The notes under the pieces were generated by a model. It worked only from the letters and a program-made list of their open reading frames with translations. It searched no databases and had not been told where the DNA came from. Positions 20,851 to 50,052 of a stretch of 64,000 nucleotides of DNA are shown here, in pieces. The translations under genes were made by a program, and so were the position numbers. Position 1 is the stretch's first letter. Every line of letters starts with the position of its first letter. The stretch comes from Octopus vulgaris (taxonomy: Eukaryota), in contig OX597826.1 in NCBI GenBank assembly GCA_951406725.2, positions 35,526,001 to 35,590,000 on the forward strand. Reading direction: 5' to 3'.

Positions 20851-20982
20851 CATCAATTCCGTAAACCAGGAGAAAATTAAAAAAACATTTACCCTGTATT
20901 TCTTATACGATGCACCGTTTCATCTACTGTTTAATGGTAAACTAACCTGATTAAATTAAATCAAGCCAATCTACCATAGGCC
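20851..20982 (-). repeat. 132-bp inverted partial copy of the 490-bp unit
   Basis: Reverse complement of 21316-21447. Confidence 0.97.
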
Positions 20983-21292
20983 TGTTATTTCTAGTGGGTG
21001 AATGGCCTATTATGGCCGTTCCTTGATTGTGATGTTGAACTTAAAAATGGTTTATGACTATTTAATTTTTTCCCACTAGGCCGCTGGTGGCAATAAGATT
21101 CTACAAAATTTTTTTGCCACCCTATATTGATTAATTATGAATTTTCTGGTTAGTTCCGTAATGGAATCGGCGGCTTATATTTATTTGCTGCCGATAAATT
21201 TGGCGCGAGTGCGATGATTTGAAAATTTTAGGTCAGATATTGCCGAGGCAGGGATGAGAATGCCTCGTGAAAAATATCTGTTCCGACTTGGC

Positions 21293-21401
21293 TATTTCTT
21301 ACTGATGAATCTAAGGGCCTATGGTAGATTGGCTTGATTTAATTTAATCAGGTTAGTTTACCATTAAACAGTAGATGAAACGGTGCATCGTATAAGAAAT
21401 A
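21293..21401 (+). ncRNA. Type I hammerhead ribozyme (copy 1)
   Basis: Stem I tatttctta/taagaaata; CUGAUGA 21302-08; stem II atcta/tagat plus extended hairpin; GAAA 21377-80; stem III cggtgcatcg; GUA cleavage after 21392. Confidence 0.9.
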
Positions 21402-21782
21402 CAGGGTAAATGTTTTTTTAATTTTCTCCTGGTTTACGGAATTGATGTTATTTTGCGGTTGAAGCTTTTGGCTGTTATTTCTAGTGGGTGAATGGCCTAT
21501 TATGGCCGTTCCTTGATTGTGATGTTGAACTTAAAAATGGTTTATGACTATTTAATTTTTTCCCACTAGGCCGCTGGTGGCAATAAGATTCTACAAAATT
21601 TTTTTGCCACCCTATATTGATTAATTATGAATTTTCTGGTTAGTTCCGTAATGGAATCGGCGGCTTATATTTATTTGCTGCCGATAAATTTGGTGCGAGT
21701 GCGATGATTTGAAAATTTTAGGTCAGATATTGCCGAGGCAGGGATGAGAATGCCTCATGAAAAATATCTGTTCCGACTTGGC

Positions 21783-21891
21783 TATTTCTTACTGATGAAT
21801 CTAAGGGCCTATGGTAGATTGGCTTGATTTAATTTAATCAGGTTAGTTTACCATTAAACAGTAGATGAAACTGTGCATCGTATAAGAAATA
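21783..21891 (+). ncRNA. Type I hammerhead ribozyme (copy 2, G>T in stem III)
   Basis: Identical to copy 1 except at 21872; predicted cleavage after 21882. Confidence 0.85.
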
Positions 21892-22111
21892 CAGGGTAAA
21901 TGTTTTTTTAATTTTCTCCTGGTTTACGGAATTGATGTTATTTTGCGGTTGAAGCTTTTGGCTGTTATTTCTAGTGGGTGAATGGCCTATTATGGCCGTT
22001 CCTTGATTGTGATGTTGAACTTAAAAATGGTTTATGACTATTTAATTTTTTCCCACTAGGCCGCTGGTGGCAATAAGATTCTACAAAATTTTTTTGCCAC
22101 CCTATATTGAT

Positions 22112-22176
<65 letters not shown>

Positions 22177-24659: not shown

Positions 24660-24823
24660 ATAGGCGTAGGAGTGTCTGTGTTGTAAGTAGCTTGCTTACG
24701 AACCACATGGTTCCGGGTTCAGTCTCACTGTGAGGTACTTAGGCAAGTGTCTTCTACTATAGCCTCAAGCTGCCCAAAGCCTTGTGAGTGGATTTGGTAA
24801 ACAGAAACTGAAAGAAGCCCATC

Positions 24824-24903
<80 letters not shown>

Positions 24904-25135
24904 GTGCATGTGTATGTTTGTGTGTCTGTGTTTGTCTCCCCAACATTGCTTGACAACCGATGCTGGTGTGTTTACTTCCCCATAACTTAGCAGTTCAGCA
25001 AAAGAGACCGATAGAATAAGTACTAGGCTTACAAAGAATAAGTCCAGGGGTCGATTTGCTCAACTAAAGGTGGTGCTCCAGCATGGCCACAGTCAAATGA
25101 CTGAAACAAGTAAAAGAGTAAGAGTAAAAAGAGTA
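24660..25135 (+). mobile_element. SINE family A, full length
   Basis: Well-preserved consensus head, TA/TG core and tail. Confidence 0.9.
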
Positions 25136-25142
25136 TATATAT

Positions 25143-25520
25143 TCTTTATTCTTTTATTTGTTTCAGTCATTTGACTGCACCTGTGCTGGAGTACTGCCTT
25201 TAAATGAACAAATCGACCCCAGAACTTAGTCTTTGTAAGTCTAGTACTTATTCTATCAGTCTCTTTTGCCAAACTACTAAGTTACAGGTACATAAATACA
25301 CTAATTTCAGTTGTCAGTAGTGTGGGGATAAATACAGACACACAAACACATATATACCTACAACATATATCTATATCTATCTATCTATATATATATATAC
25401 GACACGCTTCTTTCAATTTCTGTCTACCAAATCCACTCATCAAGGTGACATATAGTGGGACTGAACCTGGAACCATATGCTTGGGATGCAAGCTTCTTAC
25501 CACACAACCATGCCTGTGCC
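25143..25520 (-). mobile_element. SINE family A, tail-to-tail with the previous copy
   Basis: Reverse complement of family A tail and head. Confidence 0.85.
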
Positions 25521-25690
25521 TATATACATATATATCTATACACACACACACATATGCAAGCACAAACACACACACATATATGTATGTATAAATGTATGTG
25601 TATTTTGCAAAGTGCATTATGGCCAATGTTTGTAACATTGAGGTCAGTCATGTGATTATAGGATGTATATGTATGTATATATGTCTATAT

Positions 25691-25979
25691 TATTTACATT
25701 ATTTACATTTGCCGGATATTTATCCTCATCTTGTTTGTTGTTAACACAACATTTCAGCTGATATACCCTCCAAACTTCATTAGGTGTCTTGGGGAAATTT
25801 CGAACCTGGGTTCTCCTTTCTTAGGTATTTTTCGATGTTATTATTATAATAATTATTATTATTATTCAGGTCACTGCCTAGAACCGATGCCCATGGGCAT
25901 ATGGCATAGTGGTTAAGAGCGTGGGCTACTAACCCCAAGATTCTGAGTTCGATTCCAGGCAATGACCTGAATAATAATG

Positions 25980-26063
<84 letters not shown>

Positions 26064-26243
26064 TTGAATAAAACCTTAGAAATGAGAACCCAGGTTCGAA
26101 ATTTCCCCAAGACATCTGATGAAGGCTGGAGGGTATATCAGCCGAAACGTTGTGTTAAGAACAACCAACATGAGGACAAATATCCGTTAAATGTAATAAT
26201 GTAAATAATGCACATAATTCCTCATCTCTTTAATATAGAACTG
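25691..26243 (+). mobile_element. tRNA-headed element with Penelope-type hammerhead tail, preceded by an inverted partial copy (25691-25886)
   Basis: A-box TGGCATAGTGG 25902, B-box GAGTTCGATTCC 25945, (AAT)n, then a ~180-bp tail; the tail is also present inverted upstream and at 46083-46200 and 49660-49828. Confidence 0.8.
26111..26156 (+). ncRNA. Minimal type I hammerhead ribozyme (Penelope-type)
   Basis: gacat CUGAUGA a ggctg(gagggtatat)cagcc GAAA cgtt gtgtt. Confidence 0.8.
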
Positions 26244-28614
26244 TAAGTATTATGTTTGATAGAATAATCTAAATGCTATTGGTCACATAATTGTAGATGT
26301 TCCTAAAATAGACTGGTTGGTCATGGCTGGAAACTACTTTTATTATAGATTTGTTCAATCACAGTCAATTTGGGGCTAAATAACAAAAGCCATTACTGCT
26401 ATATAACAGGATAGATCGATGGACAGATTAATGGGTGGATGGTATGACTGCATGAAAGATATGCCATTTCAAATATCTGCAAATGGCATGTCATGAAATT
26501 ATAACATATATTCCCTGGCAAATGGCTAAATGTCTTATTTCTCTATTTCATCACCTTTTAAAATGAAGGGATTTGTATGTAGTCAGCGAATCTGAGGTTT
26601 CCTGCTGTGGCTTTTATTAAATTATTATTAAATATCACAGAAATGACTCGAGTAAAAATCAAAATGTTGTGATTGATGATGCAATGAATTAAATAAATTA
26701 GTACAAGATATAAATTCTCTGAGATATTGATTACATGTTCTTCATTAGCACCTTACATCGATCGGTGGAGCGTTTAGTGGTGATGGCGACATCAGAATCT
26801 ATGTGTCAGAATTGTGCATTAGATTAATGTTACTTAAATCATTTATATTTTATGAATGAAAGCAACAGTGTGAAAGCAATATTACTACATCATCCCATGT
26901 GTCACCGTTAGGAAGTGCCACACCTTGCTTTCAGTGCCTCACTCAACAATACAATCACATTAGGAATGTATTATTCCATAACCAAACACCTACCATATAG
27001 ATTTTCCTTTTTCCCATAGATTGCAATTCAACTCTAAACCTGTAAAAGTGGCTATATTAGTTTCATAATTTCTATAATGAAGGACCCTAAAGGGACCTCT
27101 ACAGTACACCAGATATCACTTTATTTGATAGATCTGCACATTTGGACTTTCATCCAGTTATTTTATAGCATGTAATCTAAATGACAGTATCATGGTGCCA
27201 CAAATTCTAAACTGGAATCTCTAACATTAATGACAGTGGATCTTCGTCATTTTTCGAGGAGGATCCAGTTCTTTGATCAACTGAATTACCTGCTCCTGTT
27301 TAAGTGGCTGAGTATCCCTCAGACATTTGTATCCATTACAAAATTCTCTGTGTTTTGAATTTCAGGTACAATCCACCTGAAAGGCTTCTACTCAGTTTCC
27401 GTCTACTCATTCCTTTATAAGTCATGGACTAACTTGAGGCTACTGAAAATGACATTTGGCCAAGCTGGCATTGCTGGGATTGAACCCAGAATCTTGCTGT
27501 TGCAAAGAAAATTCCTTCTGACCAGGTTATATTACTGCTCAGAGCTTTGCTCTCCTAACTCACCCAGTTTCAAACAAGAAACTAAAGGGTTACAAAGAAG
27601 GTTCACCATTAAAATAACTTTGGTTAAAAGCCTTAATTAGTGGAAATGTGGAAAAGCTCTGTGTCTCTACTCTCTCGAATGCTGAGGAGAGTGACATAAC
27701 ATATATATATATATATATGAACATTGATTGAGGGGTATGTTCCAAACTTCAAAATTAGAGAAAATTTTAATACATGAACTGTTAGATAATATCTACCTCC
27801 AAATATACCACCTTTGAAATTACGCAAAAACATTCTATTGTACCAGACTAATAATTAAAGGTCTTCAACTGCCTGCTGAAATTAATGAAAAATATAAAAG
27901 GAACTTTTACTGAAAAACTGACAATAAACATTAGATAAACTCCTAACCACAGTAGCAAACCAGCCTACTATTCGAGGTCTCATTCAGCGAAGATCAGCTC
28001 TTACAAACCCATTCATAGACCAACTTTCAGCCATAAAGCAACAGCACAACTTCTAAAAATTAGATTAAGGTAGTGCTCCAGCATGGCTGCAGTCCTACAA
28101 CTAAAATCATTAAGGAATAAAAGAATAGTCATGTTGCACCTACTAAAATAAATGTATACAGATTTAAAACAGTAAAAATATATATTCATGTAAAATAAAC
28201 TAATATGTAAATAGTTAAAATAACTAAAGCTATGAATACACAATAGAAAGAATTATAGATTTGTTTAAAATAAGAATTATAAATATTTAAAATGAAGAAA
28301 TAAATATTTATTAAAAAAGAAACAACATAAATATATATTATAATGAAATATATATATATATATACACACACACCATAAATAAATAAACAGAATATAATAA
28401 CTATTTTACAGCATATTGGAAAAGTAAACAGAATATTGTGGCTGCTTGGTTAATTAGGAGAATCCAAGTTCCATTCTGCTGCTTGGAGTTTAGCCATTTA
28501 GCATTGAAACTAGCCATATCTGGCCAAATATTTTGTCTGTTTTATGTTCAAATGGACCGGATCTGACCTCTCACACCCACCGTACAATATCATTCATAAA
28601 ATAAATGATCTGTA

Positions 28615-28973
28615 TAGGTGCAGGAGTGGCTGTGTTGTAAGTGGTACCTTGGGCAAGTGTCTTCGACTATAGACTCGGGCCGACCAAAGCTTTGTGAGTG
28701 GATTTGGTAGACAGAAACTGAAAGAAGCCCGTTGTATATATATATTTCTTTACTACCCACAAGGGGCTAAACACAGAGAGGACAGACAAACGGATTAAGT
28801 CGATTATATCGACCCCAGTGCATAACTGGTACTTAATTTATCGACCCCGAAAGGATGAAAGGCAAAGTCGACCTAGGCGGAATTTGAACTCAGAACGTAA
28901 CGGCAGACGAAATACGCCTACGCATTTCGCCCGGCGTGCTAACGGTTCTGCCAGCTCGCCGCCAAGCCCGTTG

Positions 28974-29020
<47 letters not shown>

Positions 29021-29742
29021 TGAAGCATGACCTTTGAACGATGGGCCTCAAAAAGGCAATGACAAAAGACCGAGTCCTCTGGAGGCATGCTGTGACTGAG
29101 AAGTCCACAGCTGTAACCTACACCAGTGTTGCATAACCAGCCCTTGGATCGTAGGGTGACATGCTGTGCTTGAGAAGACCTACTGAGTCAAGTACATCAA
29201 CATCAGCAATATCAAAATCAAATCAAATGGAAATTGTTGTTGCGAGCCCCATGCCAGTAGCATGTAAAAAGCACCATCCAAATGTGGCCGATGCCAGTGC
29301 CGCTTTGATTGACTTCCATGTCAGTGGCATGTAACAAGTACCCACTAAACTCTTTGTGGTTGGCATTAGGAAGGGCATCCAGCTGTAGAAACACTGCCAG
29401 ATCTGACTGGAGCCTGGTGCAGCTTCTTGGCTTCCCAGGCCCCAGTCAAACCATCCAACCCATGCCAGCATGGAAAACAGACATTAAATGATGATGATGA
29501 TATGTGTATGTATATGTGTGAGTGTATGTATGCATATATGCTTGTGTGTCTTTTTCTTCCCCCCAACATCGCTTGACTACCGATGCTGGTGTATTTACAT
29601 CCCCGTAACTGAGCAGTTTGGTAAAAGAGACTGATTGAATAAGTACTTGGCTTACAATGAATAAGTCCTGGGGTTGATTTGCTCAACTAAAGGTGGTGCT
29701 CCAGCATAGTCGCAATCAAATGACTGGAACAAGTAAAAGAGC
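28615..29742 (+). mobile_element. SINE A interrupted by SINE B (-, 28746-28963) and by an RTE LINE 3' end (+, ~29018-29500)
   Basis: 21-bp TSD aagcccgttgtatatatatat at 28725 and 28964; RTE end VVKHDL..MGL..AMT.DR.LWR with (ATG)n tail; SINE A 3' half resumes at ~29505. Confidence 0.85.
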
Positions 29743-29892
29743 AAACTCAACATTAAAATCTTAAAGATACAACCTGCTCACTGTTCTAATTCTCTTCTCT
29801 CACCATTCTCTCTCTACATCCTCCCCACCTGGCTTGCTTTCTCTGCATTCAAACTTATCTCTTTGCTACTACTTCAATGGTACTTTCTAGTC

Positions 29893-30127
29893 ACAAGGTG
29901 GTGAGCTGGCAGGAACGTTAGCACGCCGAGCAAAATGCTTCGCAGTATTTTGTCTGCCGTTACGTTCTGAGTTCAAATTCCGCTGAGGTCGACTTTGCCT
30001 CTCATCCTTTCGGGGTCGATAAATTAAGTACTAGTTACACACTGGGGTTGATATAATCGACTTAATCCGTTTGTCTGTCCTTGTTTGTCCCCTCTGTGTT
30101 TAGCCCCTTGTGGGTAGTAAAGAATTA
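29893..30127 (+). mobile_element. Young SINE family B
   Basis: 14-bp TSD ggtactttctagtc at 29879 and 30128. Confidence 0.9.
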
Positions 30128-30928: not shown

Positions 30929-32154
30929 ATCATGGAACGTGAGATATTAAATTATGAAGACAATGATAACTATGATATTTGACAAATTTTTCAATCAGTT
31001 TTTGTCTATGCAGTTTCACATGCTACATATAGACATGAGTAAAAGTATCAAACAGTGCTAAAGCAAAGAAGGAGACCGCCATGGTATTACATGACCTGCT
31101 AGAAATAGCAACCAAAAAGTCATCAGGACAGGAAGGGTTTTGATCACGGTTATCTTGGATGAGGGTTGATCTGGATCTAAATGATCACAACATACCTCAC
31201 AAAACACAGAACTGCTTCTGTAGGTGAGGAATTTTGTGTTATTTGATAGATGAGATCTTGCTAAAGCTCTTTGAATGTTTGCCAACAAGAGAGCAGTAAA
31301 TGAGGTCTAAATTTTGCCACGACCTCTTAAATATTCATCTTAACCTGTAATGACCAAAATGACAATTGGCTAATTCAACAACCAACATTTAGTAACATCA
31401 AGCCAAGGATATTGCAAAGTTATTCAAAATGCTACACTCCAGGGACTATGGCTATAAACAAAATGTTTCTTCACTTAAATTTTCTAGTGTCTACAATACT
31501 ATAGCATAGAATGTTGCCAAAGAAATAAAAGTAGAAATGAAAATGGAACAATTAAGTAAATGAGCATTATATTGGAACTAAACACCAAATTCTCAAGAGT
31601 AAAAGCTATAAATCAGAATGTGATAAAGAACAGTTCTTGACCAATGTTATAGAACCACTTTGGAACATTGAGAGGTATTGACACTGTGTGAAAAACTTGA
31701 TAGAATTATTATTGCTGTCATTGTTCTTATTAATCACTCCCAATCAACAAATATTGAACAGAAACTAAGATTGGAGTAACTAATTAAAACATTTCAAACA
31801 AAGTCTAGTTCATCAAATTAATTGAATCTTTAATGCTAGAATAGCATCTTAGCAATAGAAATCGTGCTAGAATCAGAATGACAAGGGAAACTATTTTCAT
31901 GCTAAATATACTTACTCTGCCCAACAGAATACAGAATGGTAGAGGCATGTGTACAGCACCAATCGGAACAAACTGGTTGCTGGATTAAATAATCTACAGT
32001 ATCAAATCTCACCAGCCTATCTACTAAGTCCAAATTCTCCATCATTCAATTTTTGTTTGAAATCATTCTGCAGATGGTATGATAAATATCAGTTAGAAAT
32101 AACCCTAATTCCTTTCATCCCCTTCTTTCTAGTTACTGCCCTTACATTCCCTGT

Positions 32155-38617: not shown

Positions 38618-38656
<39 letters not shown>

Positions 38657-39201
38657 GAGTGAGCGAGCAGAGCATGCCATCAAAGTGACACTGGGGTAAA
38701 ATATACGAAGCCCAGTATACCCATCATGACTACCCGTCTGATAAGGGTACACCAGGCACATGCATCACAACCATATGTGCGTGACATGGTGATCTCATAT
38801 CAAGATAAACAGCACATGACCTTGCAGGTGGAGCCCAGTTAGAATTTTCTTCAGATCGAGTAACCCATCCCGCTCAAAAGGTCCCTGAATAAGGGTTGTT
38901 TAAGGACGTTGAACGAGACACCCATGTTTCCAGAGGTGAATTATTCAAACCCCAAAGAATCCTTCTCAACACATGGCTATGATGCTCCCCCACTACTTCT
39001 GCTCGTGATCAGAGATGCACATATCGTCAGCCACTAAGGGACATGCTCAACTGGTTAAGGTCAAACAACTGACAAGCAAATCTGTGGTATTGAGCAGAAT
39101 ATTTGCTGTAGCCCATCTTTTATACCAAGACAAAACAATGTACATGATAACACTTCCAATCAGTTAAGATCAGAAGCCATGAGAGCCACTGCCTGGTACT
39201 G

Positions 39202-39204
<3 letters not shown>
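38657..39204 (-). mobile_element. ~555-bp non-coding element (family E) inside (AAT)n
   Basis: Highly similar to 49085-49638 and 61471-61742. Confidence 0.85.
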
Positions 39205-39255
<51 letters not shown>

Positions 39256-43309: not shown

Positions 43310-46082
43310 TATATATGGTGTAAACGGAATTAGTGGTTGTAGTAACCGACTAAGGGATAAAATATCTGTATATACTATCAGTATCCATTACCCATATTAT
43401 TCTTGAGTATTGATGCGCAGGCATAGCATACACATATATAACAATCTGTGGTTTTCTCCTCTTTCTAATTATATGTGTGTGTGTGTGTTTTATAGCTCTC
43501 ATAGCCCATTGACTGAAGACAAGCTGGAGCTTCATCATAAAGCCATTCTCAGACAGCTATTAATATTCTGCCTTCTATTTATTTCTCTCAAGTTGAGGTT
43601 ATTTGTCCGAAAAGAACAATTATGCATGTGTGTGTTTGTATATGCATACATGTACCTCACTCCCCTAAGTAAACGTATTTATGGTGATGCGTGTAGCATC
43701 ACTACTGTACAATGGAAGGGCCTTCCTAAATATCTACTTAAACAAAGTACCTGGAATCTTAGATGACACTCTACTGCAGAAGGAACGTTTTTTTTCCCTT
43801 TCTATCAATATTTGTTATGTTTAAACTGTGAGAAACGACAAAGCAAGATCTCATACAACAATTTCTACAACAACATCGGTTTCATCAAATTTTTTTTTTT
43901 TTTCATTCCTTTATATTTTTTTCCCTTTATTTCTATTCAGTTCTATTGATTATAATGTTATGATTTATCTTGCATCATACAAAAGAAGAAAGTGACTGTT
44001 GAATGACAGATTTTATGAAAAGAAACCACCATCCATAATTTTTAGAGTTTTACTGGAAGAGATTTCTATTCTTTTGCTCATAGCAGGATAAAATATTCTA
44101 AGAAATTGCAACAGCATGCATTTTTTAACATCCTTATCTTTCGGTTTCCTCTCCTTTTGAGGATAAAGCAACGAGGCACTAAAATATGTTGACATGACAA
44201 TTGATCTATCTGCCTGTTCCGGAATCTTCCATGGCATCCACTTACTTCTAATTCTGCTTCTTGCATTTTGACATATTTTGTTTCGTTTTTTTTTTCTCCT
44301 TTTTTATCTTTCCTATCTTTCATTGTTTTGCCATTTTTTTCCTCCCCAACTGGAATAAATTTCTTTCTGTTCTTTTTCAGTTTCTTTCCATTTTTGCTGA
44401 GAATATTTTTTATTTAATTTCTAACCTGATATGAAATAAATTTTAGATTGATATAGTGGTTCATAGTAATTCCAATATATTTGCCAATATTTACAGACCC
44501 GTTTAATCTATTCTGTTCAAAGAAAGCAGACGGATGTAAATTAGAAAATAAGATTGCTGACTTCAATTTTTCTTTGATCTCAATGTGCATGGAAGGAGAC
44601 AAAGATATAAGATTTTCTTTGAGCGGAAATCATTGCAAACAGTTTAAGATGGACGTCATTGCGTGATTTCTTTAAAGAAAAACAATCTTTTTTATCGACA
44701 GTTATAGACTGTCATGCTACAATTCTTGTCAAAACTAAATCTTAAAGTTCATGTAAGAATCAAATCAACATTCAGTGTGATTGTTATATAATTGTTTCTA
44801 AATTAGGAACAAGGCCAGTACTTTTGAAGGGAGGGGCATGAATCAATAGCATTGAACTGGTACTTGACTGCTACTTTATTTTATCATCATAAAGGCTTGA
44901 CTGTTTATAAATGCACAGATGTGGTACAATTGCAGCAACCAGAATGTCAATGTTCTTAATTTACATCTATATCTCTCTAGCTGTCTGTGTGTCCGTCTCT
45001 CTGTCTATCTCTCTGTTCATCTATCTATCTGTCTGTTCGTCTATCTATCTATCTATCAATCTATCTGTTAGTCTGTCTGTCTTTCGATCAATCAGTCCAT
45101 CTGTCTGTTTATCTATCTGTCTATTTATTTATCCATGTACAGCCTAGAACTGTCACTCCAAGGCCATACATACTCAATAACAGAGACATATTTACTTTAT
45201 GGTGCCTATCAATTAATCTTAGTGAGCTGTTATTCTCAAAGTGCTCAACAAGGTTCATGTAAATTATTAATTATTTAGGGCTTTGATATTATATCTCTAC
45301 AGAAAAACTATAAACAGAGAGAGCTTATACCTGATAGACTATAGAAAGGAAATATACCTAATGATACCACAAGCAAGTATTCTGTCACCTGATGGATTTA
45401 TTTTGAGAACTCTATCTCTCATCAGGCAGTTAACTTAGCAGAATCCATCTCCCTCCAACTTTTAACTATGAGAATAAACAACAAAATTCAGAAATAAGTG
45501 AAATGGGTTGGCTGTAGCATAAACTGAACTTACATTTCAGAATGTCTTCATTTTAAAATTAAAGGCATTCAGGTTATGGTGGAGGACAAAGGCTCAAATA
45601 GCAAGTGTATCAGCAACATTCAGCTCTTATATGTAATCCAGTTATCTGCAATTGTGTCAGTAAGCCTCTTCGTGCTTTACATTCAGCATGTTAACTAATT
45701 ACACTAAGACAATCAATCATTGTGCCAAATAAATTCTTAAATTATTCTAATCAATAACTGATCAATATCTCACATTATCGGATAGAATACATATATTATT
45801 TTTATAGTATTATTGCTTTTTCCCTCTAGAGCTTTACATTATTTTAATTATCTTTCCCAATAACAACTATCAATTTTGGAACGATATCTTGTATCTGCAA
45901 ACACACGTTATGTCCTTTATGTTTGTTAATCAAATTCTTTACCAGCAATATTCTGTCCCCTAAAAGTCAGTATTGCAAACATGTATGCATGAATATAAGT
46001 ATATATGTATAGGGAGAAACATGGCTATAGATGCCCTGCCCACAAAAAGGCCCAGTTAGATATGGTGTTATTTACATGTTTC

Positions 46083-46203
46083 TTCTTGTACATTATTTAC
46101 ATTTTATGGATATCTGTCCTCTCTCCAGCCTTCATCAGGTATCTTGGGAAAATTTCGAACCTGGGTTCTCATTCCTAACGTATTTTTCGATGTTGTTGCT
46201 ATA

Positions 46204-46298
<95 letters not shown>

Positions 46299-46303
46299 CA
46301 TCA

Positions 46304-46379
<76 letters not shown>

Positions 46380-46556
46380 CCAGGTCACTGCCTGGAATCG
46401 AACTCATAATCTTGGGGTTAGTAGCCTGCACTTTTAACCACTATGCCATATGCCCATGGACTGTCTTGGGGAAATTTCGAACCTGGATTCTCATTCCTAA
46501 GATATTTTTTATGTTATCATTATTATTCGGGTCACTACCTAGAATCGAACTTGGAA
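46083..46556 (-). mobile_element. tRNA-head/hammerhead-tail element: one near-full and one partial copy in tandem
   Basis: Reverse complement of 25889-26243; hammerhead half deleted. Confidence 0.8.
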
Positions 46557-46574
46557 TAATAATAATAATAATAA

Positions 46575-47412
46575 TAATAAAGAATAATAAAGAAATAGAC
46601 AAAGAAAAATCCCAGCAATGGTTGAGAAGCTCAGGACTCAAAGCAGAAACAGAGGGATTTTTAATTGCAGCACAAGACCAAAGCCTCCCCACCAGAAATT
46701 ACCAAAAACATGTAATGAAAAGAAATATTACAAGTAACTGCAGAATATGTGGAGATGGACAAGAAACAATAAATCATATTATCTCTAGCTGCCCAGTCCT
46801 GGCTAAGAAGGAATATATTCACAGACATGACAGAGTTGGAACTTACATACATTGGAAGCTATGCCAACATTATGGAATAACAACAGAAAAAAGATGGTAT
46901 AGGCACACACCAGAAAAGGTCACAGAAAACGAGGAAAGCAACCATACTCTGGGATATGCCGATACACACAGATAGAGAAATTAAGGCCAACAGACCAGAT
47001 ATAGTTGTCAGAGACCATGAAGAAAAAAAATGCTTTCTAATTGATGTATCAGTACCGGCAGATGACAACGTGTCTCTAAAAGAAATGGAGAAACTCTCAA
47101 AATACAAAGACCTGGAAATAGAGGTAACTAGAATGTGGAATCTGAAAACAGAAACAATTCCTATCATAGTAGGTGCATTAGGCATGATAAAAAAATATTC
47201 AGACAAATACATAACAAAAACACCAGGACTTACAAACACATATAACATACAGAAAATTGCACTACTAGGCACTGCACACATCCTACGCAGAACACTTTCC
47301 ATACAATAACCATCAGAGCATCACAACAAATCACAGCACATACCCAAGGCACACAGAGCTGCGCTCGGTAGTGAAGTGAAAGCACGCTATAAAAATAAAA
47401 CTAAAACTACTG
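46575..47412 (+). mobile_element. 5'-truncated R4/Dong-like LINE (Zn knuckle plus RLE, one frameshift)
   Basis: AAQDQSL, CRIC..ETINHIISSC, HRHD, NRPDIV, DVSVP, K.SKYKDL; both ends in (AAT)n. Confidence 0.95.
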
Positions 47413-47424
47413 AATAATAATAAT

Positions 47425-49062
47425 AAGTTTAGCAATGATATCGGAATGGATTTTGGCCTTGATAAGTGTGCTAAAGCAACTTTTGTAAGAGGCAAGCTCA
47501 GGCAAACAGCTTCTGTTAAATTAGATATTGACACTACCATCAAGGAACTTGACCCACAGGAAAGTTACAAATACCTAGGAATCAACGAAGGAGATGGTAT
47601 ACATCATGCTACTATGAAGGAAAAAATAAGAAAGGAATACTATAGGAGAATAAGGCTTGTACTGAAGACTGAACTCAACTCCAAAAATTGCATTGAGGCC
47701 ATTAACACCCTGGCACTTCCAGTAGTCCAGTACAGTTTTAACATCATTAACTGGAACCTTACGGAACTCCAACGCTTGGACAGGAAGACAAGAAAGTTAC
47801 TGACATCCAAGAGCATGCACCACCCTAAGGCAGATGTAGACCGCTTGTACCTACCTAGAAGCAGCGGGGGAGAGGAATGATGCAATTAGAGCTGTGCTAT
47901 AAGACCTCTACTGTAGGAATGAACAGGTACCTATCTAGTACAAAGGACTGGATGCTGCGACTTGTGTGCGAACACGAAAGCAGCAAAAAGCTACATTCTA
48001 TTGTGAAGGAAGCTTATAAGTTCGAAAGGGAACTAGACATTAACCTTGAATCAGATGAAGAGCCGGAAACCACTGCTACCAAGCAAGCAAAGCGAATCAA
48101 GCAGACTGCAAAAAAGAACGGGCAGAATAAAATTGAGAGGCGGTGGAGCCAGAAGCCCCTGCATGGACAATATATTCTCCGAAGCCAAAATGCTGATGTA
48201 GACCAAGCAACAACCCATCAGTGGCTGAAGAGCTCTGGATTGAAAGCAGAGACTGAAGGTTTCATAATGGCAGCACAAGATCAAAGCTTGTTTACCAGAA
48301 ATTACCAGGCTAACGTTCTCCGAAACGGTACTGACCCTAAATGCAGATTCTGCGACACAGTTGACGAAATGATAGACCATCTCGTTTCGGGATGTCCTGT
48401 GCTGACACCAAACGAATACAAAAATCGCCACGATAGGGTAGGACAGTATATACATTGGAAGATATGTAAACACTACAAATCCGACACTCCTGCTAACTGG
48501 TATGAACACCATCCTCAGCCAGTTGTTGAAGGTAAAGATGTCACCATCCTCTGGGATTTTCCAGTCAACACTGACAGAACGATCAAGGCTAATCGACCAG
48601 ACATAATTGTTAAAGACAGGGAAGAAAATACCTGCAGACTAATAGAAGTAAGCGTCCCCACTGATAAAAATGTATCTGTCAAGGAATTTGACAAACTTAG
48701 TAAATATAAGGACCTGGAAATCGAAATACAGAGGATGTGGAATCTTAAAACAAAAACTGTTCCTGTTATTGTAGGTGCCCTAGGTATGATAAAAAAGGGA
48801 TGTCAGAAACACCTCGACAATATCCCTGGAAAACCATGTCTCAAGGAAATCCAAAAGATTGTGCTAACAAGTACTGCCCACATCCTTAGAAAAACCCTAT
48901 CAATGTAAATGTTTGTGTTTGCATTACATGGAGATATATCTCTACTTCCCCTCCCCAAGCTTTCAGCTATATTTCAACAACTCTTAACCTTCACTTGCCC
49001 TAGGGCGCTGGGTGTGCCCCGGCAGGTGATTGCATCAAACATGCAGATTAAAAATAAATGAC
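47425..49062 (+). mobile_element. 5'-truncated R4/Dong-like LINE (RT C-terminus, Zn knuckle, RLE; frameshift at ~47878)
   Basis: FGLDKC, YKYLG, DRLYLPR..GG, CRFC..HLVSGC, NRHD, NRPDII; 343-aa open frame; (AAT)n flanks. Confidence 0.95.
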
Positions 49063-49084
49063 AATGATAATAATAATAATAAAT

Positions 49085-49638
49085 GCCCTGATGCAGTACC
49101 AGGCAGTGGCTCTCATGGCTTCTGATCTTAACTGATTGGAAGTGTTATCATGTACATTGTTTTGTCTTGGTATAAAAGATGGGCTACAGCAAATATTCTG
49201 CTCAATACCACAGATTTGCTTGTCAGTTGTTTGACCTTAACCAGTTGAGCATGTCCCTTAGTGGCTGACGATATGTGCATCTCTGATCACGAGCAGAAGT
49301 AGTGGGGGAGCATCATAGCCATGTGTTGAGAGGGATTCTTTGGGGTTTGAATAATTCACCTCTGGAAACATGGGTGGTTCTTTCAACATCCTTAAACAAC
49401 CCTTATTCAGGGACCTTTTGAGCGGGATGGGCTACTCAACCTGAAGAAAATTCTAACTGGGCCCCACCTGCAAGGTCATGTGCTGTTTATCTTGATATGA
49501 GATCACCATGTCGCGCACATATGGTTGTGATGCATGTGCCTGGTGTACCTTTATGAGACGGGTAGTCATGATGGGTATATTGGGCTTCGTATATTTTACC
49601 CCAGTGTCACTTTGATGGCATGCACTGCTCTCTCACTC
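49085..49638 (+). mobile_element. Family E non-coding element with (AAT)n tail
   Basis: Three copies in the window, all adjoining AAT/ATT repeats. Confidence 0.85.
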
Positions 49639-49659
49639 AATAATAATAATAATAATGAT

Positions 49660-49828
49660 AATATTGAAAAATACCTTAGGTTTGAAATTTCCCCAAGACT
49701 CCTGATGAAGGCTGGAAGGTATATCAGCTGAAAAATGTTAACAACAAACAAGATGAGGACAAATATCCATCAAATGTAAATAATGTAAATAATGTAAATA
49801 ATTCCTCATTTCTTAAATATAGAACTGT
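49660..49828 (+). mobile_element. Hammerhead-tail segment of the tRNA/PLE-type element (degenerate hammerhead 49697-49740)
   Basis: CTGATGAaggctgg..cagctGAAA followed by loss of the cleavage site. Confidence 0.8.
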
Positions 49829-50052
49829 ATGTTTCTTCATATCACACACTTAATTAGTGATTTAACATTTGTTGCAGCCGTTGTTTAGTATGTCCCCACC
49901 ACTGGCCAGTCTTTATTATGCAGACCTATGAACAATTGTGCTACAACATTCCATTCTTGTCTCAGTTGCAGTCTAATCACAGCCACATAATTAATGAGTT
50001 CTTTCTAGTCTAAGCTTCGAAGTAACATTCGAGATTTGATTGCTATTTCAAG

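Follow-up and report, generated by a model that had tools for sequence, protein, structure and literature searches.

A tRNA-like cassette at the edge of the terminal repeat of a Penelope/Poseidon-type retrotransposon in Octopus vulgaris

The composite repeat at 25691..26243 of the window (the whole stretch of Octopus vulgaris DNA that was analyzed, 64 kb in length) is probably a back-to-back pseudo-LTR (pLTR) insertion of a Penelope/Poseidon-type retrotransposon, the RNA of which likely starts at a tRNA-like A/B-box cassette. Its tRNA-like head, (AAT)n tract and hammerhead-bearing tail jointly make up the pLTR of such a unit and do not constitute an independent SINE. A first-pass annotation of this DNA had described the repeat as a chimera that joins a tRNA head to a borrowed tail. 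This description does not hold, since the autonomous element itself bears the head, between its stop codon and the start codon of the next unit.

The composite repeat and its hammerhead

The direct arm of the insertion opens with the tRNA-like head (25895..25969, forward strand), which forms the 5' edge of the pLTR and in which inspection of the sequence locates an A box (TGGCATAGTGG, 25902-25912) and a B box (25945-25956). It is followed by the (AAT)n tract (25970..26061, forward strand), which varies in length among copies and is often invaded by AAT-targeting elements, and by the tail (26062..26245, forward strand), comprising the 3' part of the pLTR and the first ~55 codons of the PLE ORF. 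The ATG of this ORF lies inside the tail, at 26082, and its frame breaks after 40 codons in the window copy. The tail closes with a terminal extension ('tail' in PLE usage; 26210..26245, forward strand) that is present on one arm only and has a sharp end with no poly(A). On the reverse strand, the inverted arm consists of pLTR tail positions 1-152 without the terminal ~35-nt extension (25686..25837, 92.8% to the tail consensus), together with a short AAT tract and the final ~20 nt of the head (25838..25886, as seen in the self-alignment of 25838-25887 with 25998-25949). Between the arms lies a junction palindrome (25887..25900), centered two bases 5' of the first tRNA-like base (25895). No target duplication is evident at this locus.

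The A and B boxes, the (AAT)n linker and the minimal hammerhead are all located where the first-pass annotation had placed them. The inverted partial copy that it reported upstream is real (tail positions 1-152 at 25837-25686), but the hammerhead of that arm is damaged, with CTAATGA at its core. Similarly, the palindrome at which it had the two arms meet is present, but is intrinsic to the parent element and has been lengthened by fold-back of the head. Compared with 30 sampled tRNAs (of 34 tRNA matches), the head is identical to Arg or Ala tRNAs at 48-49 of 74 positions. On the locus, Rfam returned a weak tRNA match (13.9 bits, E 7.8) and matched no hammerhead family, ARAGORN called no tRNA, and RNA folding of the head yielded no cloverleaf; on the whole window, Rfam output was swamped by microsatellite miRNA matches.

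The putative hammerhead of the direct arm (26111..26156, forward strand) combines a stem I formed by 26111-26115 with 26152-26156, a CTGATGA core (26116-26122), a stem II (26124-26143) in which the five pairs claimed earlier are Watson-Crick and are accompanied by one G-U, and GAAACGTT (26144-26151), which contains the palindromic ACGT and after which, at 26151, the cut is predicted. It thus presents the CUGANGA, GAAA and UH core, the stems I and II and the palindromic helix III of the minimal type I class. A descriptor built after the published account of minimal PLE hammerheads (PMC4209133) returned a single site (26116) in the whole 64-kb window. In the genome, exact matches to the 33-nt hammerhead core number 2,166, against 0 for its reversed control, so that the core occurs more often than expected by chance, and it is less substituted than the remaining tail (70/2273 versus 1067/23253). 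The MFE fold of the hammerhead is not exceptional (z -0.7). A few copies, in a sample biased by the search pattern, have 5' ends near tail positions 91-94, around the hammerhead cut site. Judging from these sequence features, the pLTR appears to encode a minimal type I hammerhead, for which self-cleavage is predicted.

The first-pass annotation also had the composite recurring at 46083-46556 and 49660-49828. The inverted side of this second insertion (46089..46557, reverse strand) retains head, AAT tract and tail with the hammerhead region deleted (tail 71-110), and includes a tandem partial copy (46462-46557). The direct arm (49664..49829, forward strand) carries the terminal extension, and nested elements fill the ~3.1 kb between it and 46557. 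A 10-bp duplication (ATGTTTCTTC) is found at 46076 and 49829, and the same 10-mer occurs once more at 31463. The reported pieces are present, but 46083-46557 and 49664-49829 probably represent opposite ends of a single insertion whose AAT tract has taken up other elements, the descriptor finds no intact hammerhead in either, and no head adjoins 49664-49829.

In the second insertion, the AAT tract harbors three nested elements, at 46590-49673. Two of them are LINE fragments, with a weak zf-RVT match, which we take to be of the restriction-like-endonuclease kind; the third is a ~625-bp non-coding element with another copy at 38623-39239 (95%). The same nested elements occupy the AAT tract of other copies of the repeat (L002, L003, L005, L130, L369 and L375). 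Elsewhere in the window, other abundant short repeats likewise lie in inverted pairs at 24660-25445 (25001-25399 versus 25266-24857, 80%) and 28743-30127 (28743-28963 versus 30127-29897, 87%). A near-identical tandem and inverted duplication at 20851-22118 (647 bp at 99.4%, 132 bp inverted at 99-100%) is either a recent event or an assembly artefact.

The parent element and its insertion footprint

Some copies extend 5' of the head, and walking upstream with this extension as query reached the end of an ORF that contains RT motifs and has a C-terminus of the GIY-YIG type. The RT piece is matched by Pfam RVT_1 (E 1.4e-10); the Pfam GIY-YIG model gave no match to the C-terminal piece, in which the GIY-YIG-type motif was read by eye. 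Among longer homologues, PF26215 is present in 55/55, and PF00078 and PF28514 in most. The unit, with a consensus of 2,632 nt without the AAT tract, has the order head, (AAT)n, a segment with the ATG, the hammerhead and the ORF for RT then GIY-YIG, and a stop codon located about 31 nt 5' of the next head. A query internal to the ORF retrieved 30 loci, 7 of which are segmental duplicates, with the head downstream in 27, the tail in 24, both in 23 and neither in 2. At the 5' end of the unit, the tail runs directly into the ORF start in 27/30 loci. The tail holds the ATG and first codons of the ORF, and the hammerhead tail is the ORF's own start.

Two loci (L392 and L403) each span the whole unit, and tandem copies are found at L387 and L390. 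No intact full ORF was found: the consensus retains two frameshifts and its ORF reads as three overlapping frames. The parent family is abundant and now decayed. A common 9-nt duplication at tail positions ~128-150 preserves the reading frame, as expected of coding sequence. With a distant coral homologue as query, the 30 best loci of 83 matches all belong to this family and carry the head in 27 cases, and none of these 30 best loci represents a sister Poseidon family lacking the head. Translation by eye, following the definitions given in PMC8557442, reveals a CCHH motif and no CX2-5CxxC linker of the Neptune, Nematis and Naiad kind, a linker that Neptune-like elements of the same genome do carry. 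By its motifs and domain order, the element appears to be of the Penelope/Poseidon type.

A genome-wide search with the Pfam GIY-YIG model missed this family, which the upstream walk recovered, and pointed to Neptune-like PLEs as partner. These were rejected because the tail is missing from them, both in 30 loci examined at 1.5 kb and in 20 regions examined at 10 kb; their 3' ends are different. They include a young family in which many 781-aa frames are open and a frame of ~330-380 aa lies upstream (L091-L093, L098 and L100), and two other Neptune-like loci harbor a hammerhead variant with a TTGACAA core (U3-A8 type). We also observed two diverged relatives, each possibly from an older subfamily: a tail with a different stem II (L118:4492-4637) and a head that differs at its 3' end and likewise starts at ~-6 (L130:5616-5689).

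Genome-wide searches covered 2.8 Gb in 227 contigs. An exact 20-mer of the head has 5,148 matches, whereas the 20-mer just upstream of the head is five times rarer (963), and pieces of the repeat are present in 4 of 40 evenly spaced 10-kb tiles. From these matches and a divergence of about 6%, we estimate the family at on the order of ten thousand insertions. The main set analyzed for insertion signatures comprised 89 loci taken in genome order by exact hammerhead match (90 fetched from the first 100 of the 2,166, with one duplicate dropped). These loci contain 57 divergent pairs versus 2 convergent ones and few tandem copies, and 55 of the 57 divergent pairs present the ~35-nt extension on exactly one arm. 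An earlier set of 58 loci, half of it selected for a full tail, included 35 with both orientations, all of them divergent, with the extension on one arm in 31, on both in 0 and on neither in 4. The 3' ends are bimodal, with 69/157 arms ending at tail 140-159 and 70/157 at tail 180-185, two positions that both lie in the ORF start and are used one per arm; there is no poly(A), and the 3' end is sharp and non-repetitive in 29/30 loci. Target duplications measure 9-14 bp, and the flanks share at least 9 nt in 17/31 loci versus 9/930 mismatched pairs.

Divergent pairs, one-sided extension and target duplication amount to the insertion footprint of Penelope, in line with the PLE-type mobilization that the first-pass annotation had deduced. 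Features of the same kind appear in the available descriptions of PLEs (PMC8557442, PMC3846280, PMC11167929). The last of these accounts, for the parts available, reports that in vitro the PAc element protein binds the ORF-start region of the RNA and nicks AT-rich DNA, and that reverse transcription is primed at two internal sites in the ORF start. Priming at two internal sites would account for the one-sided extension.

5' ends at the head and the promoter question

Counted from the first tRNA-like base, the 5' ends of 89 head-bearing arms are distributed unevenly along the unit, with 18 inside the head (+10..+74), 54 at -20..+9, 1 at -50..-21 and 16 further upstream. End density reaches 0.046 per nt in -20..+9, against 0.003 inside the head and 0.002-0.003 just upstream. 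Ends are thus ~15 times as frequent in this interval as on both sides of it (binomial P 5e-29, for an interval drawn after inspection of the data). The tail-anchored set repeats the pile-up, with 16/29 arms in -25..+9 and one beyond. In most arms that seem to reach -12..-19, the added stretch is head sequence in inverted orientation, and the true ends therefore cluster at -7..+9. A Pol III leader of 12-19 nt was dropped since, of the 10 arms that map to -25..-8, 8 are classed as fold-back, two of these as ties. Two copies that run into the ORF start, L371 and L374, begin at +3 and -2 with unique flank; among the 7 ORF-start copies with a same-strand head, 2 begin at the head edge, 3 begin inside the head and 2 are tandems.

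Substitutions in the B box are fewer than in the remaining head (28/1317 versus 338/6734, at sites that are not independent). The sense consensus of the 2,632-nt unit contains no T4 run, compared to 31 on the opposite strand. Against shuffled sequences, this absence has P values of 0.005 (mononucleotide) and 0.047 (dinucleotide), ranging from 0.005 to 0.06 over four null models, in a post hoc, borderline test on a consensus from which G4 runs are absent as well; seven control ORF pieces are not depleted in T4. In three raw RNA-seq runs from organism B (perhaps another species, strandedness not recorded), the ORF end, head and tail are covered about equally on both strands, with no pile-up of starts, in libraries of a type that cannot show short Pol III RNA. 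Contigs from four further runs (organisms B-E) contain the ORF end, head and tail, and some bridge the ORF end and the head. Among the joints listed from these four runs, with 164 more beyond them, there is no well-supported joint that removes only the head. On the strength of motifs and end positions, the A/B-box cassette likely serves as an internal promoter of the element and its RNA likely starts at the head, possibly through Pol III; the chances that Pol III would read a short RNA appear about even, and it is rather doubtful that it would read the whole ORF.

An RNA start at the head would explain why most copies are SINE-like solo pLTRs. In the mechanism we propose, priming at the first pLTR/ORF junction would copy ~300 nt up to the 5' end of a head-initiated RNA, yielding the SINE-like solo-pLTR arms that represent about four in five head-bearing arms, while priming at the junction after the whole unit would yield ORF-containing, randomly truncated copies. 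The cDNA end would often fold back at the palindrome, giving rise to the inverted junction. Together, an RNA starting at the head and two priming junctions would explain both classes of copies and the starts of L371 and L374.

We assign a modest probability to an alternative in which the copies are ordinary PLE solo pLTRs that carry a passenger, namely a SINE or pseudogene of tRNA origin, ending in (AAT)n, that once landed in the 3' UTR of a PLE. The A and B boxes would then be inert, and hairpin-driven fold-back or template switching would generate the pile-up. Several observations speak for it. An imperfect hairpin centered at -2/-1, which is one of the best 18 among 2,598 windows in the unit and thus falls within the top 1%, coincides with the pile-up, and fold-back junctions are common, with 37/57 of the arms starting in -25..+12 abutting an inverted arm. 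The A box, with 70/1431 substitutions, is conserved no better than its surroundings, and PLEs devoid of tRNA-like sequence are known to have inverted junctions as well as palindromes at the 5' ends of their pLTRs, according to the available account of Adineta (PMC3846280). However, the other 20 of those 57 arms were not scored as adjoining an inverted arm, although some are tandem or undetected inverted joins, and in an informal comparison stronger hairpins elsewhere in the unit show no pile-up in 17 arms that pass the head. The absence of T4 and the conservation of the B box also lean the opposite way.

The idea in the first-pass annotation of a PLE-mobilized SINE, when taken to mean a distinct non-autonomous family that has master genes of its own, is transcribed by Pol III and is mobilized in trans by the PLE protein, appears improbable to us. 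It would fit the about four in five head-bearing arms that start in or at the head and the lack of a T4 terminator in head and tail, and PLE proteins are described as able to act in trans in the available part of PMC3846280. Identical head and tail sequences, however, belong to the autonomous unit. The comparison of 60 ORF-linked with 55 short loci identified no differing head position at P<0.002, and hence no sign of a separate SINE lineage; two tail positions differ between both groups, one of them forced by the search pattern, and their divergence is alike (6.7% versus 5.8%). That the composite works like a PLE-mobilized SINE is plausible, since most copies begin at the head, but a separate SINE family is not supported.

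The expectations that head and tail co-occur, and that the tail is linked to an RT and GIY-YIG ORF rather than to a LINE 3' UTR, were borne out. The tail lies downstream of the head in 29 of the 30 best head loci (the window's own locus included), and it is a PLE ORF, not a LINE, to which the tail is joined in the 27/30 loci described above. Other elements do enter the AAT tract, and 69/157 tail arms lack a head within 900 nt, but these headless tails are 5'-truncated or have their AAT tract interrupted by other elements. The head-tail, ORF-head and tail-ORF linkage, the fixed order ORF-head-AAT-tail-ORF and the lack of poly(A) refute both a LINE-derived tail and the nesting, by chance, of a hammerhead repeat with an unrelated tRNA SINE. 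The reading we favor is that of back-to-back pLTRs with an RNA start at the head.

Relation to known systems and significance

The octopus element combines the features of Penelope/Poseidon EN+ PLEs: a single ORF with RT and C-terminal GIY-YIG, pLTRs from partial tandems, an inverted 5' copy, a one-sided extension, a pLTR hammerhead and a short target duplication. It shares with tRNA-derived SINEs a tRNA-like head with A and B boxes. Such SINEs are non-coding families that share only their 3' end with a partner, whereas here the whole composite lies in a coding unit, and the sharp, non-repetitive end differs from the one that characterizes them, which is derived from a LINE and terminates in poly(A) or a simple repeat. 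Non-LTR retrozymes and Sm-alpha form head-to-tail arrays of non-coding monomers, while divergent pairs dominate in the octopus family. The locus is largely explained by known PLE biology, and the unusual part is the tRNA-like cassette at the pLTR edge with its sharp pile-up of 5' ends.

The nearest known counterparts, as far as their published descriptions are available, are Poseidon_Ac of Anolis (PMC11167929) and Pen2/Pen2a of Adineta (PMC3846280). They have in common with the octopus element a single ORF with RT then GIY-YIG, a pLTR that overlaps the ORF start, a hammerhead at the ORF start, two 3' end positions with a one-sided extension of 30-40 nt, an inverted 5' copy, a junction palindrome and a short target duplication. 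Unlike in these elements as described, the octopus pLTR opens with tRNA-like A/B boxes and (AAT)n, and most copies are solo pLTR arms that start from the head. The octopus head also differs from the TATA/Inr-like promoter with which Pen2a is described (PMC3846280).

The schistosome Sm-alpha and Sj-alpha repeats (PMC2770079, PMC6765202), short and abundant, are likewise reported to carry a tRNA-derived Pol III head and a type I hammerhead, and the pairing of tRNA head and hammerhead is therefore not new. In those accounts, they are non-coding and SINE-like, often in tandem and with canonical hammerheads, and no coding PLE with the same head is described; the octopus hammerhead, in contrast, is of the minimal PLE type inside an ORF start, and the copies form divergent pairs. 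Animal non-LTR retrozymes and non-autonomous PLE derivatives (PMC7229834; bioRxiv 10.64898/2026.07.22.740005; MRC1 in PMC8557442) are presented as short hammerhead repeats that do not code for protein, are akin to pLTRs and presumably rely on PLE enzymes. In these sources retrozymes are defined as head-to-tail arrays and no tRNA head is described, whereas tandem copies are a minority in octopus. Cassandra (with 5S in its LTR) and Helenus/Ajax are reported to contain sequence resembling small-RNA genes in their terminal repeats, which may supply a Pol III promoter; they are non-autonomous LTR elements, while the octopus case is the terminal repeat of a protein-coding PLE.

The accessible portion of an octopus repeat annotation (PMC13282606) does not mention ribozymes, and its consensus library may hold the octopus family. 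Among the titles and abstract openings listed by full-text searches of the open literature, there is none that reports a PLE-mobilized tRNA SINE or a pLTR of a PLE with a tRNA-like promoter.

If the head acts as a promoter, it would provide a direct route from Penelope machinery, and not from that of LINEs, to a tRNA-headed, SINE-like repeat, and could account for repeats that pair a tRNA head with a hammerhead, such as Sm-alpha. Should Pol III read the whole unit, this would be a coding retrotransposon relying on a polymerase whose transcripts are uncapped, and its translation would call for an explanation. With a fixed 5' end point and two 3' ones, both the start of transcription and the priming step of PLEs become open to testing in the in vitro system already established. 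For the octopus genome, the estimated order of ten thousand insertions, which would be annotated as SINEs, are the ends of PLEs.
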